From positions 658,937-722,936 of the forward strand of contig OY970324.1 in assembly GCA_963717005.1 (NCBI GenBank): a stretch of 64,000 bases of DNA, written 5' to 3'. The position numbers and the translations under genes were made by a program. This document shows positions 29,193 to 50,101 of the stretch, piece after piece; position 1 is the first letter of the stretch, and each line of letters opens with the position of its first letter. Under the pieces are notes generated by a model. That model was not told the DNA's origin. It ran no database searches and saw nothing but the letters and a program-made list of their open reading frames with translations. The DNA is from an uncultured delta proteobacterium (GTDB taxonomy: Bacteria; Desulfobacterota; Binatia; Binatales; Binataceae).

Positions 29193-30179
29193 ATGGCATC
29201 TACCACCGCTCTACCGCGCGCGAACCGCGCGCGCGCTCCCAGGACTCGCGTCAAAAAGCCGGCTGGATTCCATCAGTCGTGGTACGCGATCGCGCGCTCG
29301 GACGAAGTCGGCGCCGGCGAAGTGATCGGCCGCGACTTCCTCGACGGCCGCGCAATTGCCTATCGCGCTGAGAACGGCCAAGCCGTCGTGATGAACGCAT
29401 ACTGCCGCCATCTCGGCGCCGATCTCAGCATGGGCAAGGTTGTCGGCAACGACATCCGCTGCGCGTTTCATCATTGGCAATACGGCCCCGATGGCGGATG
29501 CACGAAAATTCCCGCGTCCGAAAAAATTCCCAAGGCGGCGCGAATGTTCAAATACCCCACAGCCGAAAAGTGGGGACTGATTTGGGCATTCAACGGCGCC
29601 CAACCGCTGTTCGACCTGCCCGAATTTGTCGATTACGCCGAGCCCGATCTCGACCTCCGCACCGCCGAGGCCTTCGATTTGCCGGTCGAGCCGTGGGTGC
29701 CGTTCACCAACTCGATGGACTTTCAGCATCTGCGCGTGCTGCACGGCCTCAAAATAGAATGCGACCCCGACGCAATCGAGATCGGCGACTACCGCATCCA
29801 GTACGACGTGCGCTTCGAGGATCCCAACCTCGGCATCTTCGATCAGCGCATCCGCGTGACCGGGACCAACACGATCGCCCTGGCGGGACGTCTCAACGGC
29901 ATGGCGATTCTCTCGATGGCGACCGGGACGCCGACGCCCGACGGCCGCACTCACGGATGGTCGGTCACCGCGACGCCGCGCGCCGAAGGCAGCGACGCCG
30001 AGCGCGAGCAGCGCCTCCAGATCGGCGAGGCATTCTTCCGCCGGCTGATTCAGGAAGACGAGCCCATCATGAAGACCATCCGCTTTCACGACGGCCTGCT
30101 GATAGACGCCGACCGCGCGCTCGCGCGCTTCCTGCAATACGTGCGGCGCTTCCCGACCGCGCGACCCGCCGCGAACTAA
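29193..30179 (+). CDS. Rieske non-heme iron oxygenase alpha subunit (KshA/VanA-like)
   Basis: CRHLGADL...CAFHHW Rieske motif; NSMDFQHLRVLH mononuclear-iron motif. Confidence 0.9.
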   Translation: MASTTALPRANRARAPRTRVKKPAGFHQSWYAIARSDEVGAGEVIGRDFLDGRAIAYRAENGQAVVMNAYCRHLGADLSMGKVVGNDIRCAFHHWQYGPDGGCTKIPASEKIPKAARMFKYPTAEKWGLIWAFNGAQPLFDLPEFVDYAEPDLDLRTAEAFDLPVEPWVPFTNSMDFQHLRVLHGLKIECDPDAIEIGDYRIQYDVRFEDPNLGIFDQRIRVTGTNTIALAGRLNGMAILSMATGTPTPDGRTHGWSVTATPRAEGSDAEREQRLQIGEAFFRRLIQEDEPIMKTIRFHDGLLIDADRALARFLQYVRRFPTARPAAN

Positions 30180-30198: not shown

Positions 30199-30978
30199 AT
30201 GGCTCGTCTGACCGGCAAAGTGGCGTTAATCGTCGGCGGCGGCGCCGACGGCCCGGCGAAAGCCGGCGACCAGCTCTCAATCGGCAACGGGCGCGCGACC
30301 GCGATAATGTGCGCGCGCGAAGGCGCGGCCGTGATGGTCGCCGATCGCTCGCTCGAGCTCGCGCAGCAGACTGCCGCCGCGATTCGCGACGAAGGCGGTC
30401 GCGCCGACGCAGTCGCCGCCGACGTCAGCATCGAGGATCAATGCCGTGGCGCGGTCGAAGCCACGATGCGCGCATTCTCCGCGATCCATTTGCTCGTCAA
30501 CAACGTCGGCATCGCGATCGGCGGCAACCTGCTCAAGACCACCACCGAAAATTTCGACAAGATGCTCGCGGTCAACCTGCGCAGCCATTTCCTGATGATG
30601 CGTTACGCGGTGCCCGAAATCGCGAAAGCCGGCGGTGGCGCGATTGTCAACGTGTCGTCGCTGGCCGCGCTCCGCAGCAACTCGCAGATCTCCTACGAGG
30701 CGACCAAGGCCGCGCTGCTCGGACTTTCGCGCTCGGCCGCGGTCTCGCACGCGCGCGACAACATCCGGGTCAACACGATCCTGCCAGGGCTGATTGACTC
30801 CTCGATGGTGCGACGCCTCGTCGGTGACCGCGAAGGCGCCGTCGGCCCGCGAATCCCGATGCGCCGGCAGGGCACGCCGTGGGAAATCGCAAACGCCATC
30901 GTCTTTCTGCTCTCCGACGACGCGTCCTACATCACCGGCACCGAACTGATCGTCGATGGCGGCCTCGCCGCGCGCTGA
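30199..30978 (+). CDS. Short-chain dehydrogenase/reductase
   Basis: LVNNVGI, IVNVSS, YEATK catalytic motif, IRVNTILPG, YITGTELIVDGG. Confidence 0.93.
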   Translation: MARLTGKVALIVGGGADGPAKAGDQLSIGNGRATAIMCAREGAAVMVADRSLELAQQTAAAIRDEGGRADAVAADVSIEDQCRGAVEATMRAFSAIHLLVNNVGIAIGGNLLKTTTENFDKMLAVNLRSHFLMMRYAVPEIAKAGGGAIVNVSSLAALRSNSQISYEATKAALLGLSRSAAVSHARDNIRVNTILPGLIDSSMVRRLVGDREGAVGPRIPMRRQGTPWEIANAIVFLLSDDASYITGTELIVDGGLAAR

Positions 30979-30995
30979 GCGTCGCGAGGTGAATC

Positions 30996-32006
30996 ATGCG
31001 CAAGGTTAAAGTTGGCTATCAGCTCGATTTCCGCAATCCGCCCGGCTCGGGGTTGTCGTTTCGCGATCTCTATCGCGAGTCGCTCGCGCAGGTTGAGGCG
31101 GCCGAGCGCCTCGGCTTCGATTCCATCTGGCTCACCGAACATCATTTCACCGACGACGGCTACCTCCCGGCGCTGATGCCGGCGGCCGCCGCTATCGCGG
31201 CGCGCACCGCGCGCGTGACTATCGGCACCTACGTCCTGCTCGCGCCGTTCTTTCATCCGCTGAAGCTGGCGGAGGACGCCGCCTTCGTCGATGTAATCTC
31301 GAACGGACGGCTGCGGCTGGGAATCGGTCTCGGCTACCGCGCCGAGGAGTTCGAAGGCTTTGGCGTGCCGCGCGCCCAGCGACTCGGGCGTACGCTCGAG
31401 ACGATTGAGATTCTCAAGCGCGCGTGGACTGGCGAGCGTTTCAGCTTCGACGGCAAATATTTCAAGTTTCGCGATGTGCGCGTGCTGCCGCGACCCGTCA
31501 GTCAGCCGCATCCGGAATTGTTGTGGGGAGCGGGCGCCGCAAAATCGATTCGGCGCGCCGCCGAGCTCGAGATGGGATTCGCATGCGTCGGCGGACGCCG
31601 CGAAATCGGCATCTATCTCGACGCGCTCAAGACCGCCGGCAAGGACGCCGCGCGCTATAGCATCGTCAACAGCCGCGTCGTGTACGTCGCCGACAGCGAA
31701 GAGGATGCGTGGCGCGACACCCGCGACGCGCTGATGTACCAGGCCGAGCTGTACGGCAAATGGCTCTCGGCCGCGGCCGGCACCACCGACCAGAGCAAGG
31801 TGCTGATTCGTCCCGACGCCGAGCGCTTGAGGCGCACCAGCGTGCTCGGAACGGCGTCAGAGGTAGCCGCACGGCTCGAGGAAATACTCGAATCGACTCC
31901 TATGACCGAGCTAATCGTCGTGACCCAATTGCCGGGACTCGATCCCGCCAAGGCGCGTCGCTCGCTGGATCGATTCGGCGCCGAAGTTTTGCCGCGCTTC
32001 AAGTAG
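30996..32006 (+). CDS. LLM class flavin-dependent oxidoreductase
   Basis: AERLGFDSIWLTEHHF, HPLKLAEDAA.VD.IS.GRL.LGIGLGYR..EF. Confidence 0.93.
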   Translation: MRKVKVGYQLDFRNPPGSGLSFRDLYRESLAQVEAAERLGFDSIWLTEHHFTDDGYLPALMPAAAAIAARTARVTIGTYVLLAPFFHPLKLAEDAAFVDVISNGRLRLGIGLGYRAEEFEGFGVPRAQRLGRTLETIEILKRAWTGERFSFDGKYFKFRDVRVLPRPVSQPHPELLWGAGAAKSIRRAAELEMGFACVGGRREIGIYLDALKTAGKDAARYSIVNSRVVYVADSEEDAWRDTRDALMYQAELYGKWLSAAAGTTDQSKVLIRPDAERLRRTSVLGTASEVAARLEEILESTPMTELIVVTQLPGLDPAKARRSLDRFGAEVLPRFK

Positions 32007-32018: not shown

Positions 32019-34052
32019 TCACTCCTCCAGGTCTGGCGAGAGCGACGCGATCGAGTGCCTCATGCTCTTGAGCTGGTTGATGATACCGACCAGTTTACCG
32101 CGATTGCGCTGCTCGGCAGCCTTCTTGAGCTCGTTCTCGAGCTTGCGAGCCTGCATCTGGACGGTGAGGTAGTTGGGCGGCACGGTCACCTGGGCACCCG
32201 CGATCAAGCGATCGACATCGGCCAGCTCTCCCGTGCACAGCAGGACTTGCACTTTAGTTGGCTGGTTAAGATTGATCAGGGTAACCGAATCGCCTACCAG
32301 CCGCTCGCAGTCGGCGATCGCGTACACCGAGCTCAACGACCGTAGGAAGAAGCCCAACGTATTTAATACTTGCTGAGTTTCGGTCGGGTCGGAGAAGTAA
32401 GTGTTGGCGAGAGTGGCCAGCGCCTGGGCCCCGGTCTCGCCCTTCCTGGGAGCTGTAAATGCCTTGATCGCATCGCCCGTGGGTGAAAAATAAAATGAAA
32501 TAGCGCCTTCGAGGGTATTGAAAGCGCCATTGTGGAAAAACGACTTCTTGCGGGCCGATTCGATCAAAGGTTGAAGATTGAAGGCGCCCTCTTTCAAACC
32601 GGATCCGCTGATACACCCGGTGTTGCCGCCTGAATTTATGCCGTTGTTACAGTCACTGCCCGACGACGATACCGCTGTCGCCCCATTGGCAACTTTATCG
32701 CCCGCATCCTGAGGAAAGATGATCGGCGCCACCATCGCGTTGAGTCCATGCGCGGTTGCCGTCGCGCCGTTGAGGCATGTGGTCGGCGAGCCGTTTGCGT
32801 CAGTGCACCTCAGAAGATCCACCAATTGCTTCGAGGTGAAGTTACGTCCCGGAAAAGGAGCGGAGGGGTCATTGGGGTTGGGTGCATGGACCAGACCGGT
32901 GGCGTCGTTTGCGCCGGCATTGAAGTGGCAAAGATTGCACTCGGTATTGCCGTTGAGAAATATCGCCTTACCCGTTTCAGCCGTGCTGTCCTTGAAGGTG
33001 ATAACGGGTTGCGATGCGTCGACCTGCGTTCCCGCGGCGAAATTGGTCAGTGTATCGGTGCCATCGTCCGCGTCGCTGTTCACGCCCTGCTTCAGAGCGA
33101 ACTCGTATCGGCGGCCGAGGTACTCCTGGAAAGCCGCGATGGCGTCCAGTTCCGCGGACGTTGGACAGCGGAAATCGACGCCGGGTACCCGGTTGAGGCT
33201 CCGCGTCAGGTGAGTCTGGACCGCGGTGAGCGAAAAGGCTCGCAGCGACTTGGTCAGATCCAGGGGGTCGGCGTTCGCCGCGTCGATAGCATCCCGGCAG
33301 TCCTGATTCAGGGAAGTAGTGGTGGCTCCGAAAGCATCGGGGTCGGCGAGCGTGCCGTCTCCTGACCAACCGAGCTCGATATTGCGAGTGCCGTCATCAA
33401 CCCCCGGATTTGCGGTCCCGAACGTTGGAGGATTATCATTAAGAAATACGTTAGTCAGCGGAAAAGGCACCGCGCTGGCCGGAAACGGCGGCGGCAAAGA
33501 CCCGCAAATGACCGCGACCAAATCTGTGCCGTTCTCGATTACCCCAGGCGGCGAGTCGTTAGCGCAGAAATCTGGCAGGAAGTTCGAGGTTGTTAAGCTC
33601 AACCCCGCAATCGTCATCGAAGCGCGAAACGGGCCGACCGGCGTGTTGGTTGATCCTACTTCATCAGGTGTGCCCCCTACACCAGCGTTGATGTTGAACA
33701 GCCCGAGGGTTTGCACCATCGTCGAGTTCTCCAACGTGCCGTTGCCGGCGTTCCCTGGGGCGACGCTGGCCGCGAAGAGCAATTTCTTCTGATGAGCGCT
33801 CAGCGTCGGGATGTCTGCCGGGGTGATATCGAAGTCGCTTTGCGGGAGATGGCAGGTTGAGCAGGTGCGGCCGTTTCCGTTGAAGGTTTGCTTGGTGAAA
33901 ATCTTGAATCCGTGATCGATTAGCTTGGCCGATTTGGCGTCAATCGCCCACGCTCTCGAGCCAATCGTACCCGGAAGCAGCAGTGCCAGAGCATGGATCG
34001 CGAGGATCGACGACCACGTGCTTCGTCTTGCAACTGTTCGCTGTGCTTTCAT
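32019..34052 (-). CDS. Secreted diheme c-type cytochrome, cytochrome c peroxidase/MauG superfamily-like
   Basis: Signal peptide ending RAWA; two CxxCH motifs (GRTCSTCH, GKAIF...ECNLCH); FNLQPL...FFHNGAFNTLEGAISFY resembles the CCP C-terminal motif; 10 additional Cys. Confidence 0.75.
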   Translation of the reverse strand: MKAQRTVARRSTWSSILAIHALALLLPGTIGSRAWAIDAKSAKLIDHGFKIFTKQTFNGNGRTCSTCHLPQSDFDITPADIPTLSAHQKKLLFAASVAPGNAGNGTLENSTMVQTLGLFNINAGVGGTPDEVGSTNTPVGPFRASMTIAGLSLTTSNFLPDFCANDSPPGVIENGTDLVAVICGSLPPPFPASAVPFPLTNVFLNDNPPTFGTANPGVDDGTRNIELGWSGDGTLADPDAFGATTTSLNQDCRDAIDAANADPLDLTKSLRAFSLTAVQTHLTRSLNRVPGVDFRCPTSAELDAIAAFQEYLGRRYEFALKQGVNSDADDGTDTLTNFAAGTQVDASQPVITFKDSTAETGKAIFLNGNTECNLCHFNAGANDATGLVHAPNPNDPSAPFPGRNFTSKQLVDLLRCTDANGSPTTCLNGATATAHGLNAMVAPIIFPQDAGDKVANGATAVSSSGSDCNNGINSGGNTGCISGSGLKEGAFNLQPLIESARKKSFFHNGAFNTLEGAISFYFSPTGDAIKAFTAPRKGETGAQALATLANTYFSDPTETQQVLNTLGFFLRSLSSVYAIADCERLVGDSVTLINLNQPTKVQVLLCTGELADVDRLIAGAQVTVPPNYLTVQMQARKLENELKKAAEQRNRGKLVGIINQLKSMRHSIASLSPDLEE

Positions 34053-34219
34053 ACGGAAGTCCTCCTCTCCCGGCCAACAGTCGAATCCCCTCTGACCCCT
34101 TTCGTTACTCCCCCGCTGGCCGCGTCCGGCCTTCTTGGACTCTTGGACGCGAATGAAAACCTCAATAATCTAGCTAAATATTGCGTACAAGTCTCTTAAC
34201 AGCTCTTAGAGACACAAAA

Positions 34220-34249
34220 GAAAGCCCCTAGTGTTACCTAGGGGCTTTC
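34220..34249 (-). terminator. Intrinsic terminator after the collagen-like genes
   Basis: Perfect 12-bp stem GAAAGCCCCTAG/CTAGGGGCTTTC with 6-nt loop, followed by TTTTGT on the minus strand. Confidence 0.8.
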
Positions 34250-34280
34250 GGTCTCTCAATTCGATCGGTCGCGTGTGCGG

Positions 34281-35261
34281 TTACGGAACAATAAGCCCCG
34301 CACCGTGATCGTAAGTCACCGACCATTTCACGTTGGCGTGATTCGCGCCCGGATAGTCGGCGTACGCCCACAGACTCATTTCATCGGGATTCGGCACCGG
34401 CTGGCCACCAACCCCAGGAGGGGGTGTGACAGTCACATTGAAGAATTGCGAGCCAGTCAGGTCGCTGCAGGTCGTGTCGGGCCCGGTAATGAAGCAGCTA
34501 AGACCGCAATTCGACGGAAAGTTATTACCGTTGCACAGGAAGAACCAGAAAGTGCTCGGGATCCCGGTATTCATCTGGGTGCCGGGGTCATTGTCCACGT
34601 TCACGAACAAGCGTCTCGCAGTTCCTATCTCGGACATCGGCACTTCAGGCGCCTGGGACGTGTCTGAACCGTTGCCCGGTCCGAGGATCAGGATGGTGCC
34701 AGGATTTCCGACGCTGTTATTACCCGAGAGATCGACGTTGAAGAGGTTTCCGAGCGTGCCCATCGAGCCGCCCGTGAAGACGGAAATATTCGGCTCCGGG
34801 ATTCCGGGCGTGCCTGAAGGTCCAATCGGCCCAGTCACGCCGACCAACCCGGTTGGGCCGCGGAGTCCATCTTCACCCATTATTCCTGCCGGCCCAGTCG
34901 GGCCTGTCGGTCCGATGGCGCCCTGAGGACCCTGCGGTCCAAAAGCCCCCTGCGCACCCGCAGGTCCCTGGTCGCCTGGGTAGCCTTGGGGCCCCTGTGT
35001 GCCAGGGAGACCGGGATCACCGGCCACGCCTCGCATCCCGGTGTAACCGGCGGGACCGGTCGTCACCCAATCCAGTTCACTGGTGTTGCCGGTGCAGCCG
35101 TCAATCCCGAGATTGATGCCCTTGATTTTACCGGTGTGGTTGTTGATACAGATCTCAATATTCTCGGCGCGGCCGACGCCCGGTAGTGCCGCCACGCAGA
35201 GTATCGTAGCGGCGGTCGCACCGACCAGCCAACGCCACGCGAATTTAGACAAAGCAGGCAT
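34281..35261 (-). CDS. Secreted collagen-like protein (29 Gly-X-Y triplets)
   Basis: RBS GGAGG before ATG 35261; signal peptide ending GRA; Cys-pair N-domain; uninterrupted G-X-Y tract; Cys-containing C-domain with GPGNG. Confidence 0.88.
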
Positions 35262-35348
35262 GTTGACGCCCTCCATTTTCTGTTGCCCTCCACCCGTGAT
35301 GACTTCCGATCGCGATTTCATCTGTCTTGTCCTCCTCGCGTCCCGGAA

Positions 35349-36362
35349 TCAGAAAGCGTCCGCAGGGGCGATCGCATAGTCCAGCGACCAATTGACGTTG
35401 ACGGGATTGGTGGCGATTGTGGCCTCGGATTTGTAGGCCTGAATCGAGAGAGTATCGCCTGGCGCGTAATCCAGGCTCAGGGCGCTTCCGATAAAGGTGG
35501 AAGTCGAGCAAACCGTCGAATCCGAATTCGGGAAAGTGTCATTCGCGACAGCGCAGAACGGATTCGTCATTATGTCGCAGTCCGCCTCGTTACACAGGAT
35601 GAAAGTGTATTGGGCACCGAGAGGACCCGCATCTCCGGGTGTAATCGCAACCGTCATATTGAAAGCTGTGCCGCCCGGAGTTGGCACCTGAACGCTGGTC
35701 TGCGGACCTGCAACCGGGGCAGGAGGAATCGAAGTGATGCCTTCTCCCGAGGCGCCATTTCCCGGTCCCAGGTACAAGGGGGTGGTTGGCACTCCGAGGT
35801 TTCCCGAAAACTGAGTCAGTTGGATAGACGCAGCCCCGCTGATTGTTCCGCCAAGCGTGCCGCCGCTGAGAATCTCAACGTTGTCGCCCGGACCAAATGA
35901 GGGAGTTCCGCTGGGTCCCGTCGGCCCGACTGCGCCCACAGGCCCGGTTGGTCCCGGATATCCCGTATTGCCCGTCGGTCCCGCAATACCGGTAAAGCCT
36001 TGCACTCCGGCCGGACCAGTCAGGCCCTGCGATCCCATTGGGCCCGTCGGACCTACTGGACCAACCAGACCTTGCGAGCCTGTCGGTCCGACCGCGCCGG
36101 GTGCACCAGCGGGACCGGTGTAACCCTGATATCCCTGTGGACCCTGTGGCCCGGGAAGATTCCAGACCAATGAGATGTTGTGGTTTTTGCAAACATGGTT
36201 GACCCCGATAATCTTGCCGCTCCTGGCGATGCAGAGATTGATGGGTCCGGTATCCGGTGTCTGCGCCAGCGCGTTCGATGCCGGCGCGATAGCCGCTATT
36301 AACATCGCAGCCGCCGATGCTCCGACGAGCCAGCGCCACGCGTTCTTGAAAGAATGAGGCAT
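35349..36362 (-). CDS. Secreted collagen-like protein (28 Gly-X-Y triplets)
   Basis: RBS AGGGAGG before ATG 36362; signal peptide ending ALA; same domain plan as its neighbours. Confidence 0.88.
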
Positions 36363-36427
36363 TATCGTCCCCTCCCTGACTGTTACCATTCGCGTACTCG
36401 GCATTCCCATTCCCCTATTCCGCCCGC

Positions 36428-37384
36428 TCAAGGGCCAACCACGATTGGGACATCGCCACCGGTCTGATGAACTACGACCATCCACGAAAGCTCGGTCGGC
36501 TCCGCACCATTGCTCGCGGTCGCCTTGAGGGCGATGGTGTCACCGGCGTTGAAGTGCTGGCTATCCACGAGATCCTTGCACTCGGTCAGGTTCGGCTGAT
36601 TGATAAAGCAGGTGACCGGTGACGACGAGCAGTCGCTATTTTTGCACAGTTGGAAGGTATAGCTCTCGCCCGGTCCCGGCACGTTCTTGGTCTGGACCCA
36701 GAGCTGAGTCACAGTCGAAGCGTCGATTGGTACCGCTACGCTCTCAAGCTGCGTATCAGCGCCATTACCCGGACCATAGTAAATCGGGCTATTGCTGCAA
36801 GTGCCGGTCGAGCAGAATGGGTTTGCGCCGGTCGGGCCGGACGGGCCACCCAATACGCTCGTATAGCCAAACAGCAGTTCGACGTTGCTGCCCAAGTCGC
36901 CGCCGCCAAGCGTGTAGAATTGGGTTCCGTTGACGCCGTTAACACCGGCGGCTCCTGTCGGTCCAGTCGGACCAGTCGCTCCAGTCGGTCCAGTAGGGCC
37001 TTGCGGTCCCTGCTGACCCATTTCTCCGGCAGGACCGATTGGCCCAGTGGCTCCCACATCTCCTACTGGCCCGATCGCACCGGCCGGTCCTACAGGACCT
37101 TGAGGTCCCTTCTCACCCGCAGTGCCGGTAGGTCCTTGCGGTCCTTGCTGACCCTTGGGACCCTGAGGTCCGGTTGGCCCGGTCACGCCGTTGCTATCCC
37201 AGGTGATCAACCGATTCGGCTTGCTGCAGGTGCCACCGAGCGGCAAAACAACCTTCTGGGCGCTCGGCGATATACAGAGCGTGAGTATGTCCGCCTGACC
37301 GGATCCCGGCGCGGCGGCGAGTAACAGCGCCCCCACCGCGACGCCCAGTACCATGCGTCGGGCATGCTTGAGTGATTCGTGCAT
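36428..37384 (-). CDS. Secreted collagen-like protein (30 Gly-X-Y triplets)
   Basis: RBS AGGGAGG; signal peptide ending GQA; Thr/Gln-rich G-X-Y tract; C-domain with GPGNG and FQLC. Confidence 0.88.
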
Positions 37385-37747
37385 TTACCATCCCTCCCTA
37401 GAAACTCGCGCCAGAGATTAGCTGGCCTGCCTCGCCCAAATCGGGAACCCGAAGTATGATCGCGGCCCCCCCCGGGACACTTTGCCGAAACCTTTGTCGC
37501 AGAAAACCACAGGTAGAGTCAACCACCCCTGACAAATGCCTTTTCGCCCTAGCCATCGATAACGGTCGCATCCTTCAGTTCCGTGTAGCTTAGGCATCTG
37601 TTGGGAGCCTGTTTCGTGCCTGTTGATTGTCAGAGGCTCGCACGCTCTAATCGACTCTCCCGCAATGAATATTTCACGCGCTTAAAGCCGCACGCGGAGA
37701 ATTGAAGCTCCGGGGAACGGCCCTTGCCGCTGACCGCTGTCGTGTGT

Positions 37748-37776
37748 TTGCCGAATTCTCCTTGCAGTCGTAGAGT
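37748..37776 (+). promoter_or_regulatory. Sigma70-like promoter TTGCCG-N17-TAGAGT; ATG 37784 lies 7 nt downstream
   Basis: Canonical 17-nt spacer directly before the selenoprotein start. Confidence 0.5.
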
Positions 37777-37783
37777 GAGGCGC

Positions 37784-38632
37784 ATGCCAGTCGCATACAT
37801 TCCTCGCACGCGCGATCTCTACAACGAGTTCACTCCTTATCGATGGGTCGAGAACGATTCCGCGCCGTTCACTCCGCTCACAAAATCCATCGCCGAGTGC
37901 AGAATCGCGATGATCAGCTCCGGCGGCATCATGTATCGCGATCAGCCGCGCTTCCATCGCGAGGACGCGTCGTATCGCCGCATCCCAAAGGATGCGCGCC
38001 GCGACGACCTGAGCGTGTGGCACTTCGGCTATCCGACCCGCGACGCCGAGCGCGACGTCAACTGCGTGTTCCCGCTCGAGCGGATGCGCGAGCTCGAAGC
38101 GGCCGGCGTAATCGGCGCGCTAATCGATCCGGCGTTCAGCTTCATGGGCGGAATTTATTCGGCGCGCAAAGTCCGCGACGAACTCGCTCCACAAATTCTC
38201 GATGAGCTCAAGCGCGCGCATGCCGACGCTTTCTTCCTCGTCCCGGCCTGACCCGTTTGCCATCAGTCCGTTGGACTGATCGCACGCGCGGTCGAGGAAG
38301 CGGGAATCCCCACGCTCGCAATGACTTCCGCCCTCGACATCACGCAGTCGGTGAAGCCGCCGCGCGCGGTGTTCGTAAATTTCCCGCTCGGTCATCAGAC
38401 CGGACCGCCCGATCAACCCGAACTCCAGCGCCGGATCGTCAGCGACGCGATGCGCGCCTTCGAGACCATCACGGCGCCCGCGACCATCGTCGAGCTGCCC
38501 TACGTGTGGGACGCCAACGATCGATCGTGGGAAGAAATCGACTACACGAAAGGATGGATGCCGGCGCGTCCGTCGCGCGAAGCCGCCGACCAACAAGAAG
38601 CCGCGCGCCGGGCAAAATTCCGCCGCCGCTAG
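37784..38632 (+). CDS. PrdB/GrdB-like (proline/glycine reductase selenoprotein B family) selenoprotein with UxxC motif (282 aa, Sec156)
   Basis: IAMISSGG, DVNCVFPLERM.EL...G.IG, FSFMG, then FLVPA-TGA(38249-38251)-PVCHQSVGLIARAVEEAGIPT...PPRAVFVNFPLGH in frame; SECIS-like hairpin after the TGA. Confidence 0.9.
38262..38280 (+). promoter_or_regulatory. Putative bacterial SECIS hairpin (ATCAGTCC-GTT-GGACTGAT)
   Basis: Perfect 8-bp stem with G-leading loop 18 nt after the UGA. Confidence 0.72.
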
Positions 38633-38727
38633 TCGCGACTGGGCACATCTCGCACTTTTCGCGCCGCGCGAGTAGCTTCATCGCAACGGCCCGTCGTCGC
38701 GACGAGAATAACGGGAGGGATTCTATC

Positions 38728-39117
38728 GTGGGATATCATGAGCTCGATCTGGTGACGCTGCTCGCGTTGCTCGAATATTCGATCCTCGGCGTGATGGTTG
38801 GACGCGCGCGGCTGACCTACGGAGTCGAGGCGCCGGCCACCACCGGCAATCCCGACTTCGAGCGCTACTTCCGCGTCCATGAAAACACGCTCGAGGCCCT
38901 GATCGTCTTCATCCCCGCGGTCTGGATATTCTCGCTCACGGTGAACTATCACTTCGGCGTCGCGCTCGGACTGTTGTTCCTGATCGCGCGGATCGTTTAC
39001 GCCCGCGGCTATTTGAGCGCAGCCGCCAAGCGCGGACCGGGGGCAATCGCGTCGGTCGCAATCAACGGCATCCTGGTGCTGGTCAGCCTGGTGTGGATCG
39101 TAATCAAAGTTCTCTGA
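38728..39117 (+). CDS. MAPEG family membrane protein (glutathione metabolism)
   Basis: GTG start after GGGAGG; VGRAR..YGV.APATTG.PDFER.FRVHENTLE; LIARIVYARGY. Confidence 0.9.
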   Translation: MGYHELDLVTLLALLEYSILGVMVGRARLTYGVEAPATTGNPDFERYFRVHENTLEALIVFIPAVWIFSLTVNYHFGVALGLLFLIARIVYARGYLSAAAKRGPGAIASVAINGILVLVSLVWIVIKVL

Positions 39118-39134
39118 GCCATCGCTCACACCCC

Positions 39135-39164
39135 CTGACCTCTTCGTGCGGAAGAAGAGGTCAG
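39135..39164 (+). terminator. Hairpin downstream of MAPEG gene (terminator or REP-like)
   Basis: 11-bp perfect stem CTGACCTCTTC/GAAGAGGTCAG; U-tract weak. Confidence 0.45.
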
Positions 39165-39261
39165 CTTCATCACGCCGCTGCTTTACCTCTCACCCCGACG
39201 CTACTAGTCTCTGTTAGTTCACGATTTCATTTTCAATTCATCACTCAAGGAGAAGTTGCTC

Positions 39262-39783
39262 ATGGCCGAAGAACGCAAAGGCGCCGTTACGATGCGGGGA
39301 AACCCGATGACCCTGGTCGGTCCCGAAATCAAGGTCGGACAAAAAGCACCCAACTTCAACGTCGTCGGCAAGGGGATGGCGCCGGCGACGCTCGATCAGT
39401 TCAAAGGCAAAGTCAAAATCATCACGACCATCCCTTCGCTCGACACTCCGGTCTGCGATGCGGAGACGCGCCGCTTCAACCTCGAGGCAAGCAATCTGCC
39501 GGGCGACGTGCAGATTCTCTCGGTCTCGATGGATCTGCCGTTCGCGCAGGCGCGATGGTGCGGCGCGGCCGGGGTGGACAAGGTCACCACGCTGAGCGAC
39601 TGGCGCAGCGCAAGCTTCGGCACCAACTACGGTGTGTTGATCAAGGAGCTACACCTGCTGGCGCGATGTGTGTTCGTGGTCGATAAGAATGACAACGTGA
39701 CCTACGTCGAGTACGTCAAGGAAGTCGCGGAGCAGCCGAACTACGAAGCCGCGTTGGCAGCGGCCAGGAAGGCAGCCGCCTGA
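39262..39783 (+). CDS. tpx: Thiol peroxidase Tpx
   Basis: MRGNPMTLVG, IPSLDTPVCD.ETRRFN, SMDLPFAQARWC, LARCVFVVD, EQPNYEAAL. Confidence 0.95.
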   Translation: MAEERKGAVTMRGNPMTLVGPEIKVGQKAPNFNVVGKGMAPATLDQFKGKVKIITTIPSLDTPVCDAETRRFNLEASNLPGDVQILSVSMDLPFAQARWCGAAGVDKVTTLSDWRSASFGTNYGVLIKELHLLARCVFVVDKNDNVTYVEYVKEVAEQPNYEAALAAARKAAA

Positions 39784-39810
39784 CATCAACTGCAAGCCGT
39801 CCGGATCCTA

Positions 39811-39971
39811 ACCTCTCCTTGTCCGAGGAGAGGTCGGCGCCGCCGCAAGGAGGCGCCGGGTGAGGTACAACGCCGGCACTCGCACACACGGTTTTATGCG
39901 ATGAGCAATTCCGAGATGGCGAGGAGTCGAGCGTGGTACCTCTCCTAACCCCCTCCTCGGACCAGGAGAGA
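39811..39971. repeat. Inverted pair of REP-like palindromes
   Basis: CCTCTCCTTGTCCGAGGAG (39812-39830) matches the reverse complement of 39953-39971 with 2 mismatches; the left arm forms a 9-bp hairpin. Confidence 0.55.
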
Positions 39972-39980
39972 ATTCCCGCG

Positions 39981-40760
39981 ATGTCTATCTCCAGCACCAA
40001 TCGCTACGCGTTCGCCGACGCGCTCAAGCGCGGTCTCTACGAGGCTGTCTTCCGCCGCCGCGACATCCGCGAGTTCATTTCCGATCCGATTCCCGACGAC
40101 GTGCTCGCCCGCGTGCTCATCGCCGCCCATCATGCCGCCAGCGTCGGCTTCACCCAGCCGTGGGATTTCATCGTGGTGCGCAGCGTCGAGCAGCGCCGCC
40201 GGGTGAAACAAGTCTTCGAGGCCGAGCACAAAAGGAATGCGGCCCAGTTCAGCGGCGAGCGCCGCGATAAATATCTGTCGCTCAAGCTCGAGGGCATCCT
40301 GGAAGCGCCGCTCAATCTGATCGTCACCTGCAAGCCCGAGCGCTTCGGCCCCGCCGTGCTCGGCAAGACCAGTATCCGCGACGTCGAGATTTATTCGGCC
40401 TGCCTGGCCGTCGAAAATATGTGGCTGACGGCGCGCGCCGAGGGGCTGGGCATGGGATGGGTCAGCATCATGCGCAATGACGCGCTGGCGGAAATTTTCG
40501 GCATCCCCGGCGACGTCATTCCCATCGCCTATCTGTGCCTCGGCTACGTGCGCAAGTTTCCCGATCGCCCAATACTGGCGAGCGCGGATTGGGCGCAGCG
40601 GCTGCCGCCGAAATCGCTGATTCACTTCGATTGCTGGAATGACGCCGCCGATCGAGCTTCGCCCGCCGCCGAATCCCTGCTGAAAAAGATCGACGACCAT
40701 TCGATCTGGCTCGCCATCTTTCCCGAAGATTCGCCGGACAAGCCGCCGTCGCGCGACTGA
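39981..40760 (+). CDS. bluB: 5,6-dimethylbenzimidazole synthase BluB
   Basis: LYEAVFRRRDIREF, AHHAASVGFTQPWDF, YLSLKLEGILEAP, S.CLAVENMWL.ARAEGLGMGWVSI. Confidence 0.9.
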   Translation: MSISSTNRYAFADALKRGLYEAVFRRRDIREFISDPIPDDVLARVLIAAHHAASVGFTQPWDFIVVRSVEQRRRVKQVFEAEHKRNAAQFSGERRDKYLSLKLEGILEAPLNLIVTCKPERFGPAVLGKTSIRDVEIYSACLAVENMWLTARAEGLGMGWVSIMRNDALAEIFGIPGDVIPIAYLCLGYVRKFPDRPILASADWAQRLPPKSLIHFDCWNDAADRASPAAESLLKKIDDHSIWLAIFPEDSPDKPPSRD

Positions 40761-40888
40761 CTCGACCGGACCTTCGGTGAAACTCCTGCTGCGCTGGCTG
40801 GACAGACGCAGGATTGATCAGGCAACCTTTCAGCCGTCCGAAAACTCGAAACTCGACAGTTCGGTTTCAAGATGGAAGGCGGTGGGCA

Positions 40889-42934
40889 ATGACGAGATCG
40901 ATTGGTGCTTTGCGATCAGTGGCGCTGGCAATGCTGTGCGTGGTGATTGTGAGTGGCAGCGGACTTGCCGCGGGAACCGGGAATTCCAGGCGAACGCGTA
41001 CTCCGATCAAGCATCTGATCGTCGTGATCGGTGAGAATCGCAGCTTTGACAACGTCTTTGCGACCTATGTTCCGCCCGATCCCACGCAGCACGTATGGAA
41101 TCTGCTCTCTGAGGGGATTGTAAATCAGGCCGGTTTGCCCGGGCCAAATTATGCCCTGGCGCTTCAGAATCAAGCGACCGATCCGACCACCTACCAACTG
41201 AGTCCTGCGCAGACCGGTCCATTCTCGCTCCTTCCTCAGCCGAGCACCACGCTCAACGCGCTGCCGGCCTCACCGTGCGACTTATCAATCTTACTTCTCG
41301 AATTTGGCAAGGACCCGGCACAGATTCTGTTTTGCACCGATGACGCTCTGGAACCCACGGCACAGAGCCTGTTGGATATCAGCGGTACCGGACAATCGTT
41401 TTATGGAGTTCCCCTCGGCCTAGGCTCCTTTCCGGTCCCCGACTGCCGCTATCCATCGGATCTGCCGAACGGGCCCTATTCCATGGTCGGAGCGTCGCAG
41501 CTGAATTCCTGCCCGTCTCCGTCATTCAAGTCGTCGATAACACCTACCAAGTTCACCGATAATGCCGGCGACCCGGTGCATCGATTCTTCCAGATGTGGC
41601 AGCAGAATGATTGCAGCGTCGCAAATATATCCGCCAGCAATCCTTCCGGATGCGCTCATGACTTTTATACCTGGGTCGCGACGACAGTCGGCTGGCAGAT
41701 TACCATGGACGGCCATCCACCGATGAGCGATCAAGGCACCTTCCAGGGCGGAATCGCGATGGGCTTCTACAACATGGCTGCTGGTGACTATCCGTACTTT
41801 CGGTCGCTCGCGTCGAGCTACGCTATTAGCGACAACTATCACCAATTCGAGATGGGCGGGACGGGTCCCAACTCGCAATCGATTGGGACGGCTGACCTCT
41901 ACTACTATACCGACAGCAATGGCACACCGGCGACTCCGGCGGGTAACCTGATCGAAAATCCGGATCCGCAATCGGGCAGCAATAACTTCTATACCAACGA
42001 CAGTCCCGCTACGGGCGATCTCGGCAACACCAGCACCGGTGGATTCGTTAACTGTTCGGATGCGGCTCAGCCGGGGGTGACGGCGATCAGCGGCTATCTT
42101 GCCGGGCTTCCGTATTCGCCATTCAACGACGGCAATTGCGCGCCCGGGAATTACTACCAGGTGGACAACGAGTACCCGAGCTACGATCACCTGGGCAATC
42201 CGATCCAGCAGGGCAACGAATTCCCCAATGGCCCGGCCTTCGCGATCGGACCGCAGACCGTTCGTACGATTGGCGACGCATTATCCGCCAGGCACGTCTC
42301 GTGGAAATATTACGGAGAGGGAATGAATTCCGCGGATGACCCGGCGCTGGCCAACGAACTGTACTGCGCGATCTGTAACCCCTTTCAGTTCTCGCGTTCG
42401 ATCATGACCGGACCGCTCAAAAACAACCTCGTGGACCTCGACGTCTTTTTCAGCGACGTAAATGACGGCACGCTTCCAGCAGTCTCATTCGTGAAGCCTG
42501 ATATTCTTCTCGACAGCCATCCGGGAACCTCGACTCCTCCGCTGTTCGAGGCGTTCACTCAGCGGATCATCAACGCGGTTCAGAGCAATCCGGATATCTG
42601 GAAGGACACTGCCATATTGGTTACTTTCGACGAATCCGGCGGCGAGTACGATTCGGGATATATACAACCGATCGACTTCTTCGGCGACGGCCCGCGCACC
42701 GTTATGATAGCTGTCTCGCCATACTCCAAATTCGGCTATGTCGATCACACCTACTCGGACCACGCTTCGATCATCAAGTTCATCGAGCGCAACTGGAAGC
42801 TCAAGCCGCTCTCCAAACGGAGCCGCGACAATCTGCCTAATCCCAGGAGTCTTTCGTCGGCCCCGTATTTTCCAACTAACAGTCCTGCGATCGGCGATCT
42901 AACACATATGTTCACCTTCAAAGCGAGAAGATAG
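40889..42934 (+). CDS. Secreted phosphoesterase (phospholipase C / AcpA-like family)
   Basis: Signal peptide; TPIKHLIVVIGENRSFDNVF, SDNYHQ, DSHPG, TFDESGG.YD, YSDHASIIKFIE.NW. Confidence 0.88.
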   Translation: MTRSIGALRSVALAMLCVVIVSGSGLAAGTGNSRRTRTPIKHLIVVIGENRSFDNVFATYVPPDPTQHVWNLLSEGIVNQAGLPGPNYALALQNQATDPTTYQLSPAQTGPFSLLPQPSTTLNALPASPCDLSILLLEFGKDPAQILFCTDDALEPTAQSLLDISGTGQSFYGVPLGLGSFPVPDCRYPSDLPNGPYSMVGASQLNSCPSPSFKSSITPTKFTDNAGDPVHRFFQMWQQNDCSVANISASNPSGCAHDFYTWVATTVGWQITMDGHPPMSDQGTFQGGIAMGFYNMAAGDYPYFRSLASSYAISDNYHQFEMGGTGPNSQSIGTADLYYYTDSNGTPATPAGNLIENPDPQSGSNNFYTNDSPATGDLGNTSTGGFVNCSDAAQPGVTAISGYLAGLPYSPFNDGNCAPGNYYQVDNEYPSYDHLGNPIQQGNEFPNGPAFAIGPQTVRTIGDALSARHVSWKYYGEGMNSADDPALANELYCAICNPFQFSRSIMTGPLKNNLVDLDVFFSDVNDGTLPAVSFVKPDILLDSHPGTSTPPLFEAFTQRIINAVQSNPDIWKDTAILVTFDESGGEYDSGYIQPIDFFGDGPRTVMIAVSPYSKFGYVDHTYSDHASIIKFIERNWKLKPLSKRSRDNLPNPRSLSSAPYFPTNSPAIGDLTHMFTFKARR

Positions 42935-42948
42935 GGAGAGCTGGCGTT

Positions 42949-43443
42949 TTGAAAAAACTATTCACTGTATGCCTGCTGGTCGCGGTCGCAGGCTGCGGCT
43001 CGCAGAATCCTTCGGCGGGCGCGCCGGGCAACTCCTCAAGCCAGAGCTCGTCGAGCTCTCCGGCGCCCGCGCCGCCCGCGGCTTCGATTCTTCATCACGA
43101 GGGCTGCACGATCGATATCGTGAAAGTCTGCAAGTCCTTCATCGATCAGCCGCAATTCACCTACAACGGCGACGTGTACACCTGGGAGCGTTTCCAGGAG
43201 ACCTCTAACCGGCATCCTGACGTCGAAATCTGGGCACGATATCCCGACGGCAAGGTGGTCGCCGACATTGAATGCCATGTTGACGCACAAAATCGCAAAG
43301 TCGATTGGGCCCGTCTCTTGCCCGATCCGCCGCTCACCGACAAGTCATGGGACTATGCCAAGAGCAAGCGGTGGTGCCAGGAGGATTCGCCCGACTACAG
43401 CGCCTGGAGCGACTACTGGCGCAGCGAATCCACCCAACAATAG
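42949..43443 (+). CDS. Hypothetical lipoprotein
   Basis: TTG start after GGAGAG; lipobox VAGC, Ser/Pro linker, four further Cys. Confidence 0.7.
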   Translation: MKKLFTVCLLVAVAGCGSQNPSAGAPGNSSSQSSSSSPAPAPPAASILHHEGCTIDIVKVCKSFIDQPQFTYNGDVYTWERFQETSNRHPDVEIWARYPDGKVVADIECHVDAQNRKVDWARLLPDPPLTDKSWDYAKSKRWCQEDSPDYSAWSDYWRSESTQQ

Positions 43444-43528
43444 CGCACCGCACCACGATTTTCCCGGAGACCGTGTATCGCCTTGCGAACGCATGCTACA
43501 AGAAGCCATGCTTCGATAGGGCGAGACG

Positions 43529-46500
43529 ATGCGCTGCGCGAAATGCGGGACTGAGAGCGAGACCGGCAAGAAATTCTGCGCCGAGTGCGGCAGCCCGTTG
43601 TCGAATCGATGCGCGAGGTGCGGTTCGGATAACGCCTTCGGCGCGAAGTTCTGTGCTGAGTGCGGGGCCTCGCTGATTGCGGCCGCAGCGGATGCGACTC
43701 GCGTCGAAGCCGCGACGGCCGCAGTACGTGTCACCGCGCCTGCCGAAGCATCGGCGCTCGCAACCGAGGGCGAGCGCAAGACCGTCACCGCGCTGTTCGC
43801 CGATATCAAGGGCTCGACCGAACTCGAGCAGGATCTCGATCCTGAAGAGGCGCGCGCAATCGTCGATCCGGCGCTGAAGCTGATGATCGACGCGGTCCGC
43901 CGCTACGACGGCTACATCGTGCAGAGCACCGGCGACGGCATCTTCGCGCTGTTCGGCGCGCCGGTTGCCCACGAGGATCATCCGCAACGCGCGCTCTACG
44001 CCGCGCTGCGCATGCAGGAAGAAATTCGGCGCTACGGCGAGCGGCTGCGCGCCGACGGCCGCGCGCCAATTCAGATTCGGGTCGGTGTGAACACCGGCGA
44101 GGTGGTCGTGCGCTCGATTGCGACCGGACAAGGTCAAGCCGAGTACACACCGATTGGGCACACCACCAATCTCGCCTCGCGGCTGCAGACCCTGGCCGAC
44201 CCCGGCGCGACCGCAATCTCGGAAAGCACGCGCCGGCTGGTCGAGGGCTACTTCGTGCTCAAGCCGCTGGGACCGGCGCGGATCAAGGGCGTCACCGAAC
44301 CGGTCAACCTCTACGAAGTGACCGGACTCGGCCCCTTGCGCACGCGCTTGCAGCGCTCGGCCGGACGCGGGTTCACGAAGTTCGTCGGGCGCCAGCGCGA
44401 GATGGATGCGATGCGCAACGCGGCCGATCGCGCGAAGTCGGGGCACGGACAAATCGTGGCGGCGGTGGCCGAGGCCGGCGTCGGCAAGTCGCGCCTGATC
44501 TTCGAGTTCAAAGCCACCAGCGCGGCCGGCTGGATGGTGCTCGAGGCCTACTCGGTCTCGCACGGCAAGGCGTCGTCGTATCTGCCGGTCATCGACCTGC
44601 TGCACAGCTACTTCAAGATCGAGTCGCAGGATGACCAGCGGACCCGCCGCGAAAAAATTGCCGGCCGCATCGCGATTCTGGATCGCACGCTCGAGGACAC
44701 GCTGCCCTACCTGTATGGCCTGCTCGGAATCGGCGAAGATCCCGACCCGCTCGGCCAGATGGACGCGCGAATCCGCAAGCGCGGCACGTTCGACGCGATC
44801 AAACGCATCCTGTTGCGCGAGAGCCTCAACCAGCCGCTGATGCTTATCTTCGAGGACCTGCACTGGGTCGATGAAGAGACCCAGTCGCTGCTTAACACTC
44901 TCGCCGATTCGATTGGCACCGCGAAGATTCTCCTGCTGGTGAATTACCGCCCCGAGTATTCGCATCAATGGAGCGGCAAGACTTACTACACGCAGCTTCG
45001 GCTCGACCCGCTCGGACGCGAAAGCGCCGGCGAGATGCTGCTCTCCATGCTCGGCGACAGCGCGGAGCTTGGCCCGCTCAAGCATCTCATCATCGAAAAG
45101 ACCGAGGGCAACCCCTTCTTCATGGAAGAGACCGTCGAAGTGCTGTTCGACGACGGCGCGCTCCTGCGCAATGGCAGCATCAAACTGACCAAGCCGCTCG
45201 CCGAGTTGAAGATCCCGGCTACGGTAAAGGCAATCCTCGCCGCGCGCATCGATCGCCTCTCGCCAGCCGACAAGGACTTGCTGCAAACCCTCGCGGTGGT
45301 CGGCAAGGAGTTCCCGCTAAGTCTCGTGCGCGCGGTGGTAGGAACTTCCGACGACGAGCTAGCCTTGATGCTTGACGATCTACAGCTAAGCGAGTTCATC
45401 TACGAGCAGCCCGCCTTCGGCGACATCGAATACACCTTCAAGCACGCGCTGACCCTGGAAGTCGCCTATAACTCTATCCTTACCGAGCGGCGCAAGACCC
45501 TTCACGAACGGATCGGCGATGCCATCGGTGCGCTGTTCAAGGATTCGCTCGACGACCATCTCAGCCAGATCGCTGACCATTATGCCCGCAGCTCCAACGC
45601 AGAAAAGGCAATCGAGTACCAGGCGTCGGCGGCCAAACGCGAGCGGGCGCAAAGCGCCTACCAGGGGGCGCTCCAGCGTCTGCAGAATGCTATCGAGCTG
45701 TTCGCGAAATTGCCGGATTCGATGGCGCGCGCCGAGTTGGAGCTCAACCTTCAGATCGATTACGGCTCCGCCCTGCTGGCAACCAAAGGATGGTGGGTTC
45801 CTGAGGCCGGACAAGCCTACCGGCGCGCCCGCGAACTATGCCAGGAAAACACCGACGACCCACGGCTGTTTTCGGTGCTAAGCGGACTTCACTCCTTCCA
45901 TCTCGTTCGCGGCGAGCACCCGATCGCTCTCGGCTATACCGCCGAAGCGATCAGCCTCGCGAACCGGCTCGGCAACCGTCGAATGCAAGCCAGCGCTTGT
46001 GTGTTGGAAGGTTTCAGTAAGTTCTTCATGGGTGACTTCACTGACGCGCATTCGAGTTTCGAACTGAGTATCGGCTATTACGATCCAGAAAGTCATCGCC
46101 GCTTCGACGCCGAGACTTCTGACCAGGATCCACTGGTCAGTGCCCTCTGTTATGACGCGATGGTCCTGTGGATGCTTGGCTATCCGGATCAGGCCGATAA
46201 AAGAGCTGCCGATTCGATCCTTCATGCCCGACAGATCGGCTCGCCATTTTCTCTGACCTGGAGCTTGTCGCAAGTCAGCGTGTACTACACCATCAGCCGC
46301 AACTTTGAGTCAGCGGACAAGACCACCAAAGAAGGGCTGGCGCTCGCCCGCAAGCACGGCCTGGGCTTCTTAGCGGACCAGATCGTCAACTACATAATGT
46401 TAGGTGCGGTCGCTCAAGGAAAGTTCGATCAACCGGCCGAAGGCGGCCCCGGCGAGGAAGTGTTCGCGGAGGCCGGCTTTGAGCTGGCTCATACGTGGGC

Positions 46501-49285: not shown

Positions 49286-49287
49286 TG

Positions 49288-49809: not shown

Positions 49810-49875
49810 CCGAATGATCGAGCGTACACGATTGCAGCCCGCGTGACGAAAATTTTTCGAGCGCCGCACGCGCGG

Positions 49876-49904
49876 TTGACTGTGCGCGGTGCCGCGCGTA
49901 ACTT
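49876..49904 (+). promoter_or_regulatory. Sigma70 promoter TTGACT-N17-TAACTT driving riboswitch-btuB
   Basis: Near-consensus boxes immediately upstream of the aptamer. Confidence 0.65.
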
Positions 49905-49910
49905 CGGCGT

Positions 49911-50050: not shown

Positions 50051-50101
50051 TAACTGTCTGCCTTCCGCGGGGAGGGTGGCCTCAGGCCCGCTTTCCTGAA
50101 G

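Follow-up and report, generated by a model that had tools for sequence, protein, structure and literature searches.

Analysis of a 64-kb window of Binataceae DNA (the whole stretch under study, referred to below as the window) indicates that one of its genes encodes a genuine selenoprotein, in which an in-frame UGA, codon 156, specifies selenocysteine (Sec). Profile and alignment comparisons place the product as a stand-alone member of the GrdB/PrdB superfamily, distinct from the PrdB subunit of D-proline reductase. With regard to function, the reading that we regard as reasonably probable is that of a genuine stand-alone selenoprotein from a non-Stickland PrdB-like family, which would act as a selenol-thiol reductase on an activated carboxylate or a conjugate. 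The gene is a mis-annotated addition to a family that has been catalogued but is biochemically uncharacterised. What is new here, judged from sequence comparison, is Sec decoding in Binataceae and the pattern of gene partners across phyla.

Gene structure and selenocysteine decoding

Mechanical open reading frame (ORF) calls at 37724-38251 and 38321-38632 represent the two halves of the PrdB-like gene, and an earlier note on this DNA had proposed to join them through an in-frame TGA. The coordinates given there proved exact: translation on the forward strand from the ATG at 37784 to the TAG at 38632 is continuous over 282 residues, with one internal stop. The start, MPVAYIPRTRDLY, is common to homologues. 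The internal codon lies in the context FFLVPA-*-PVCHQSVGLIARAVEEAGIPT, which gives the motif VPA-U-PVC-HQ. Recognition of a UxxC motif of the PrdB type in the same note is likewise borne out, as U156-P-V-C159-H aligns with C-G-T-C-H of a true PrdB (P0197). Cys159, which falls on the CxxC of that protein, is kept in all 60 Binataceae sequences. Features of the gene and its surroundings are collected in Table 1.

Table 1. Position and supporting evidence of the PrdB-like gene, its elements and selected neighbours in the window.
Feature	Position	Strand	Evidence or remark
PrdB-like selenoprotein CDS, stand-alone, complete	37784..38632	+	Translation with one internal TGA; 282 codons including Sec156
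In-frame UGA, predicted to be read as selenocysteine (U156)	38249..38251	+	Conserved TGA; Cys codons in some homologues
Cys159 codon, second residue of the UxxC centre, putative resolving cysteine	38258..38260	+	Conservation, PrdB alignment
SECIS hairpin	38258..38284	+	Fold; synonymous-site constraint; pairing and covariation
MAPEG-family membrane protein	38728..39117	+	PF01124, E = 5.8e-20; 96 bp downstream of PrdB-like gene
Thiol peroxidase Tpx	39256..39783	+	NF001808, 213.4 bits, cut-off 123
BluB, 5,6-dimethylbenzimidazole synthase	39933..40760	+	TIGR02476, 238.6 bits, cut-off 150
SDR and luciferase-like monooxygenase (LLM) genes	30199..32006	+	Pfam; remnant of the SDR-LLM-GST-PrdB-like order of relatives
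Rieske protein	29193-30179		

For a comparison of codon 156 across species, one genome per species was scanned, which yielded 80 loci. All 60 distinct Binataceae coding sequences have TGA at this codon, as do two Rokubacteria, a single Actinomycetota locus and a Syntrophaceae paralogue. TGC or TGT stands there in Desulfobacteraceae and ten Burkholderiales, among them the isolate Lacisediminimonas profundi. Together with P0006, a full-length homologue of 291 residues that is 57% identical and carries Cys at the Sec site (VPV-C-PVCHQ), the latter two groups supply the full-length Cys forms for which the earlier note had recommended a search. Across the 60 Binataceae sequences, identity to the window protein is 81% after the TGA as against 75% before it, and the better conservation of the downstream part argues that this part is translated. 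A 96-nt tRNA with the anticodon UCA was detected by ARAGORN in three Binataceae relatives (L018, L020 and L039), 3-7 kb upstream of the orthologue; that of L020 scores 71.2 bits with Rfam model RF01852 (gathering score 47). For the lineage, Sec machinery, whose absence had been named beforehand as grounds for rejection, is thus represented by a tRNA-Sec gene near the orthologue.

Public gene calls stop at the TGA. A protein search returned 577 close homologues; of those listed, almost all measure 155-157 residues and were thus cut at the same TGA codon. Hundreds of database entries show the gene in two pieces, a 'PrdB' fragment of 155 residues and a 103-residue ORF without a name. Such entries are what would be expected if there were no selenoprotein at all and the TGA were either a true stop, leaving two small genes or a pseudogene, or a site of read-through that does not involve Sec. 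No tRNA-Sec is found in the 64-kb window, and selA, selB and selD are not seen among those of its ORFs that give a Pfam match, which is consistent with the same view. Nevertheless, we hold it to be exceedingly unlikely. The TGA and the downstream frame are kept in all of the Binataceae sequences and in three other phyla, full-length homologues carry a Cys codon at the same site, relatives possess a tRNA-Sec, and the C-terminal ORF taken alone has no start codon common to homologues. TGA is also the normal stop codon of 26 of the 52 window genes, which argues against a change of the genetic code, and a scan of the window for in-frame TGA read-through candidates found the PrdB-like gene only.

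Selection at the RNA level also stands against a stop or a non-Sec read-through. The hairpin that follows the TGA has a perfect upper stem of 8 bp, formed by 38262-38269 (ATCAGTCC) and 38273-38280 (GGACTGAT), and a lower stem of three more pairs (38258-38260 with 38282-38284). Its loop (38270-38272) is GTT in the window and GUN across homologues, with G and U invariant. In bacteria, a SECIS element is recognised as a stem-loop that starts some 11 nt past the UGA and has G and U in its apical loop, and SelB-binding loops are known to carry such a G and U; here the stem begins 10 nt past the TGA, and the G-U-N loop agrees with that pattern. The folding energy of the region (MFE) is -38 kcal/mol over 91 nt (z = -2.3). 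The perfect 8-bp SECIS-like stem described in the earlier note was therefore found at the site indicated, and its conservation is far beyond chance.

In the 60 Binataceae coding sequences, synonymous entropy is the lowest of the gene at the hairpin, at 0.23 bits for codons 159-165 compared with a gene mean of 1.10. Within codons 160-165, CAT, CAG, TCC and CTG are each synonymously frozen (60/60); variation is free at the third loop base and in the codons flanking the hairpin. Double changes keep the stem in L071 (CAGACA..GGTCTG) and L076 (CAAACC..GGTTTG), and wobble changes do so in L041, L059 and L088. When 20 sequences were aligned over the hairpin, 95% of cells were paired, as opposed to at most 34% for slid-partner controls; compensatory changes occur on both sides in two pairs, and the covariation score was reached by none of 500 shuffles. 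RNA-level selection acts on this hairpin. The recently converted Cys form P0006 retains 7 of the 8 stem pairs, and a SECIS-type hairpin is absent from distant Cys forms. At both gathering and permissive thresholds no SECIS-type family of Rfam was matched, a result that is uninformative since bacterial SECIS elements are poorly modelled there.

Conservation of the TGA, the Cys homologues, selection on the hairpin, the conserved downstream part and the tRNA-Sec of relatives all agree in pointing to Sec at codon 156. With the gene correctly annotated, Binataceae, an uncultured lineage widespread in soil, gain a selenoprotein and with it the Sec-decoding trait.

Family placement and search for a pyruvoyl partner

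The best NCBIfam match of the window protein is the PrdB model TIGR04483 (E = 1.5e-50), at a score of 171.9 bits that lies below the equivalog cut-off of 300. As controls, the true PrdB P0197 scored 453.2 bits with this model, and eight other stand-alone relatives about 70-140 bits. The Pfam family GRDB (PF07355) was matched by residues 19-153 over model positions 206-345 (43.7 bits, E = 3e-11, gathering threshold 22). TIGR01918 (glycine/betaine/sarcosine/D-proline reductase selenoprotein B) was matched over model positions 213-429 only, at 63.1 bits and thus short of its cut-off of 65.45. Identity to P0197 is 32% over 218 residues.

An exhaustive search with P0006 gave 1638 clusters (50% identity) at E <= 0.001. 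Among the best 150 of these 1638 clusters, 70 have Cys at the Sec site (59 also with the second Cys), and 33 representatives end exactly at this site and are thus probably Sec forms. A further 26 of the 150 have neither Cys nor Sec at the position, so that not every family member can use selenol or thiol chemistry. PrdB-like proteins thus constitute a large single-domain family with frequent Sec/Cys exchange, whose members are found in bacteria that are aerobic or otherwise non-Stickland.

No Pfam match to Trx, Grx or Prx was obtained for the PrdB-like protein, and a sequence search of the PDB gave no match at E <= 1. The structural model used was the AlphaFold model of P0006 (mean pLDDT 88), that is, of the 57%-identical Cys homologue and not of the window protein itself. 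A Foldseek comparison of this model with the PDB returned nothing at E <= 0.001, the best TM being about 0.3. The predicted fold differs from that of thioredoxin and has no match among solved peroxidases or oxidoreductases; since no relative has been solved, the structure gave no functional lead.

In known prd operons, prdA and prdB adjoin. Neighbouring genes in the 80 genome loci were obtained by a codon-position GC filter on ORFs and BLAST clustering, and Pfam annotation covered the top clusters together with selected genes. PF09338, the PrdA/GrdE family, was absent from all Pfam-labelled neighbourhoods and from the annotated recurrent neighbour clusters of these loci, and no PrdA or GrdE was found among annotated genes within 6-10 kb of homologues at about 90 loci in six phyla. 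Within the window, PrdA/GrdE (PF09338), GrdA, GrdC and GrdD are likewise lacking among the ORFs with a Pfam match, 7 ORFs being matchless and a few, including the collagen-like one at 35349-36485, unscanned. To this extent the gene is PrdB-like but orphan, with no PrdA or GrdA/C/D partner in its annotated neighbourhood, as had been stated in the earlier note. A pyruvoyl-dependent arginine decarboxylase encoded at 2578-3141 was considered as a surrogate pyruvoyl partner and rejected, as it is 35 kb off and belongs to an unrelated family.

It might be argued that the protein is simply the PrdB subunit of an ordinary D-proline (or glycine/betaine) reductase, with PrdA/GrdE and the other partners encoded elsewhere in the genome. 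PrdB is, after all, the best model match, the identity to a true PrdB extends across the whole domain, and the inspected part of the genome amounts to 64 kb. Against this, the TIGR04483 score is little more than half the curated cut-off, PrdA/GrdE is missing from the annotated genes around homologues at all of the loci mentioned, BluB, which requires O2, is encoded by the host along with a Rieske protein and luciferase-like monooxygenases, and Cys forms are present in an isolate, Lacisediminimonas profundi. We consider an ordinary PrdB very improbable. The window protein is not regarded as PrdB proper because its TIGR04483 score is far under the cut-off and PF09338 is absent from the Pfam-labelled neighbourhoods, and orphan PrdB-like proteins in general seem to be a stand-alone family in their own right, for which no pyruvoyl partner was detected.

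Gene neighbourhoods and proposed function

The typical gene order in Binataceae (for example in L001 and L006) is SDR, LLM, GST, PrdB-like, MAPEG, Tpx, BluB and cob genes. In the window, the MAPEG and Tpx neighbours reported in the earlier note are present directly downstream on the same strand, with a gap of 138 bp between them. Upstream, on the opposite strand, there are three collagen-repeat genes and a gene for a 677-residue protein of unknown family; opposite-strand genes occupy the region 32019-37384. The GST of relatives is missing here, and no GST homologue of the Binataceae upstream type is found in the window. Neither a CoA-transferase nor a GST lies beside the PrdB-like gene here, the nearest being 15 kb away. 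A promoter and terminator scan of 37300-40900 gave no promoter-like sites, and terminator-like sites at chance level. Among relatives, a GST is found upstream in 28 of 70 Binataceae loci (median distance 51 bp), MAPEG downstream in 34 of 82 clustered loci, all of them Binataceae, and Tpx downstream in 54 of the 82. As the Binataceae loci are related by descent, these counts are not independent, and the linkage to MAPEG and Tpx may be inherited synteny.

In relatives, BluB is followed by cobT, cobS and cobU. A link between the PrdB-like gene and BluB or the cobalamin genes was considered and rejected: the latter form a cob cluster of their own with a riboswitch, and there is no linkage to the PrdB-like gene outside Binataceae. 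BluB is a context marker of an aerobic lifestyle and is probably not functionally linked to the PrdB-like gene. The aerobic context that the earlier note suggested from a Rieske oxygenase and BluB is upheld by the equivalog match of BluB, and a Rieske protein is likewise encoded in the window.

Across lineages, the neighbourhoods of PrdB-like genes are heterogeneous. A family III CoA-transferase gene is directly adjacent in one Rokubacteria locus. It is also adjacent in both Desulfobacteraceae loci, where the genes overlap by 4 bp and a nitroreductase gene follows. In Burkholderiales, a CoA-transferase III is adjacent in 8 of 10 loci (the remaining two have none or are cut off too early), although family III CoA-transferases are very numerous in this order, which makes the adjacency weaker as evidence there. 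In each of the ten Burkholderiales loci the PrdB-like gene is followed by one for glutaredoxin, which lies between the PrdB-like and CoA-transferase genes. On a marine contig, genes for a CoA-transferase and an AhpD-like protein lie next to a more distant member, the Actinomycetota locus L071 has a thiolase upstream, and in Dongia sedimenti two GSTs flank the PrdB-like gene, with a flavin reductase also present. Other loci contain MFS transporters, a dehydrogenase, or a sulfite reductase with a sulfonate-type transporter. Natural fusions of an AMP-binding (adenylate-forming) enzyme with a PrdB-like domain are represented by two clusters, P0157 and P0201; the PrdB-like domain of P0157 shares 35% identity with the window protein along its full length. 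CoA-activating enzymes as recurrent partners outside Binataceae had not been foreseen in the earlier note.

The proposed mechanism follows from analogy with PrdB. The selenolate of U156 would attack an electrophilic centre of the substrate, and C159 would then resolve the adduct to give a selenenyl-sulfide, which a thiol system (glutaredoxin/glutathione or thioredoxin) might reduce again. Glutaredoxin/glutathione is the most likely candidate for the electron donor, because of the glutaredoxin gene in the Burkholderiales operon and the GSTs elsewhere. The substrate could be a carboxylic acid in the activated form of its CoA thioester or, alternatively, a glutathione conjugate, and the reaction might be the reductive removal of a substituent adjacent to the carbonyl. 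Such an activated carboxylate or thiol conjugate is suggested by the recurrent CoA-transferases, adenylate-forming fusions, thiolase, glutaredoxin and GSTs; we put this substrate and its reductive cleavage forward with more reserve than the redox cycle itself.

A different function would be that of a general thiol/selenol antioxidant, in which peroxides or disulfides are reduced directly at the UxxC centre, the protein being one component of a MAPEG-Tpx defence module with no carbon substrate. The position and recurrence of MAPEG and Tpx downstream, the GST upstream in Binataceae and the glutaredoxin of the Burkholderiales operon would all fit this function, and UxxC is typical of redox selenoproteins (PMC1088965). 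However, the linkage to MAPEG and Tpx is limited to one bacterial family and is gone in all other lineages, and the gaps of 96 bp before MAPEG and 138 bp before Tpx show no translational coupling. The lack of a thioredoxin-like predicted fold, or of a match to any solved peroxidase or oxidoreductase, also speaks against it, and adenylate-forming fusions and CoA-transferase adjacency are not expected for a peroxide scavenger. Thus, an antioxidant role seems rather unlikely. The earlier note had suggested peroxide or glutathione-linked chemistry. The glutathione-linked part receives some support from the GSTs in 28 of 70 Binataceae loci, the glutaredoxin in 10 of 10 Burkholderiales loci and the two GSTs in Dongia, whereas for peroxide chemistry only the Tpx neighbourhood within one bacterial family can be cited.

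A reductase acting on an activated carboxylate or conjugate is therefore the function that we prefer for the window protein. Extended to the family, the idea becomes tentative: orphan PrdB-like proteins could possibly be a distinct class of Sec/Cys reductases that work with no pyruvoyl subunit, act on CoA-activated carboxylic acids or on glutathione conjugates, reductively cleave a carbon-heteroatom bond beside the carbonyl, and draw electrons from glutaredoxin/glutathione. Betaine reductase demonstrates that the GrdB/PrdB superfamily can act on a substrate unable to form a Schiff base.

Relation to known PrdB and GrdB systems

Genes of this kind have been counted for some time, and the novelty claimed for the gene in the earlier note was overstated, given 577 close matches, 1638 clusters matching a relative, and surveys since 2005 that include such genes. 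A survey of the Sargasso Sea recorded 42 'proline reductase PrdB' sequences from the oxic surface ocean (PMC1088965), the GOS survey 235 Sec and 110 Cys forms of PrdB with the UxxC motif (PMC2398784), and PrdB selenoproteins have been counted in the non-Stickland genera Anaeromyxobacter and Geobacter (PMC1794560). In these surveys, PrdB ranks among the most abundant selenoprotein families (PMC1088965, PMC2398784, PMC1794560). Their 'PrdB' genes, which come from settings like that of the window gene, are comparable with it at the level of Pfam family and UxxC motif, and the surveys keep the PrdB name without separating the genes from true D-proline reductase or proposing a function (PMC1088965, PMC2398784, PMC1794560). 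Recent reviews treat only D-proline reductase under TIGR04483 (PMC9312934, PMC13188914). Our literature search found no paper that separates an orphan PrdB-like family or proposes its function, and nothing relevant on selenocysteine in Binatia.

For twenty years, abundant 'proline reductase' selenoproteins have been noted in oxic habitats, where Stickland fermentation makes little sense. Should the orphan proteins indeed be such a class of reductases, they would represent Stickland-type reductase chemistry in an aerobic and non-fermentative form, and this would explain why 'PrdB' selenoproteins have long been found so abundant in oxic oceans and soils. The operons with Cys forms in isolated strains (Lacisediminimonas profundi and Dongia sedimenti) make the function testable; once a substrate is defined, aerobic carbon or sulfur metabolism would be seen to employ the selenol-thiol mechanism in a new way.

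Among the closest known systems is PrdB of Clostridium sticklandii and Clostridioides difficile (TIGR04483). It is a single domain of the same length as the window protein with U/C-x-x-C-H at the same position, and its SECIS element, like that of the window gene, comes directly after the UGA. Catalysis probably follows the same logic in both, with a selenolate nucleophile and a resolving cysteine. PrdB differs in lacking the basic C-terminal tail (residues 245-282) of the window protein. Furthermore, the window gene has no PrdA pyruvoyl proprotein, PrdC, PrdD/E or proline racemase nearby; genes of its type are found in aerobic soil bacteria, and their neighbours are GST, MAPEG and Tpx here and CoA-transferases or glutaredoxin elsewhere.

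GrdB, GrdF and GrdH (PF07355, TIGR01917/01918) belong to the same superfamily and have the UxxC motif in common with the window protein, which matches the C-terminal half of these 430-residue proteins. By contrast, the N-terminal portion of GrdB, about 200 residues, is missing from the window protein, and no grdA, grdC/D or grdE genes accompany it. In glycine, sarcosine and betaine reductases, the carboxymethyl group of the substrate becomes a thioester on protein C. GrdB-type systems thus likewise couple Sec chemistry to acyl-thioester chemistry.

A GrdB-like protein of Synergistota has reportedly been implicated in the reductive defluorination of fluoroacetate (PMC10838667). The chemistry of the superfamily is thus proposed to reach non-amine alpha-substituents of a carboxylate. 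Unlike the window gene, the Synergistota system, as reported, is anaerobic and keeps the context of the glycine-reductase complex (PMC10838667).

Surroundings of the PrdB-like gene in the window

In the relatives L001 and L006 a GST gene lies directly upstream of the PrdB-like gene. In the window this position is taken by the minus-strand genes of 32019-37384, which encode a tandem trio of collagen-triple-helix-repeat proteins and a protein without a Pfam match; the collagen genes are arranged in this way in L002-L005 too. A family III CoA-transferase gene and a GST gene do adjoin each other on the upstream side of the selenoprotein gene, 15 kb away, and both families accompany PrdB-like genes in other loci, but the identity of the window proteins to those partners is only ~34%.

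Downstream, BluB and cobT/cobS/cobU are separated by three genes (40814-46924), coding for a phosphoesterase-family protein, a 164-residue protein to which no family was given, and a 1131-residue zinc-ribbon/adenylate-cyclase/AAA/TPR protein. Because CobT directly follows BluB in the relatives L001 and L002, this segment looks, from gene order, like an insertion. A cobalamin riboswitch precedes a gene that is the positional counterpart of a TonB-dependent receptor in relatives.

Two other genes of the window appear broken or partial. The class I Trp/Tyr tRNA-synthetase gene (12897-13896, minus strand) is apparently split over two frames; the cause would be a frameshift or else an error in the assembly. 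A short-chain dehydrogenase ORF matches only part of its Pfam model, and its N-terminal nucleotide-binding part seems to be absent or to lie in another frame.

Coordinates of features in the window and of tRNA-Sec genes in related loci
Feature	Location	Strand	Remarks
tRNA-synthetase, part 1	13144-13896	-	Pfam model positions 7-215
tRNA-synthetase, part 2	12897-13355	-	Pfam model positions 214-291; overlaps part 1
Short-chain dehydrogenase	20861-21388	-	Pfam model positions 65-177
Family III CoA-transferase	21564-22775	-	
GST	22812-23453	-	
677-residue protein	32019-34052	-	No Pfam match
Collagen-repeat gene 1	34281-35321	-	
Collagen-repeat gene 2	35349-36485	-	
Collagen-repeat gene 3	36428-37384	-	
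cobT/cobS/cobU	47451-49869		
Cobalamin riboswitch	49900-50060		Rfam RF00174, 99.8 bits
690-residue gene	50195-52267		In region 49900-60060
tRNA-Sec	L018 1249-1344	-	Anticodon UCA, 96 nt
tRNA-Sec	L020 1089-1184	-	Anticodon UCA, 96 nt
tRNA-Sec	L039 1890-1985	-	Anticodon UCA, 96 nt

tRNA-Sec genes and tandem paralogues

Three Binataceae species (L018, L020, L039) have a tRNA-Sec gene within a few kb of the PrdB-like orthologue, on its upstream side; neither selA nor selB was recognised adjoining these tRNA genes. A Syntrophaceae contig (L076 3253-5100) carries two PrdB-like paralogues in tandem, one with TGA (U-PKC-HQ) and the other with TGT (C-PVC-HQ).

Cys-form operons, fusions and distant relatives

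In Burkholderiales (L077 2028-7963 and the corresponding stretch in other loci), the Cys-form PrdB-like-glutaredoxin-CoA-transferase operon is preceded by genes for a rhodanese protein with four domains, a protein of 205 residues that matches no Pfam family, a TctC-type binding protein and a molybdopterin oxidoreductase, and followed by an IclR regulator. Taken together, these genes are suggestive of organosulfur or organic-acid catabolism.

In two database proteins, P0157 (805 aa) and P0201 (514 aa), a PrdB-like domain is naturally fused to an AMP-binding enzyme of the acyl-CoA-synthetase type. A third relative, P0216, weakly matches UGSC, a further selenoprotein family that is abundant in marine samples (E = 9e-4), and this similarity hints at a remote relationship between the families.
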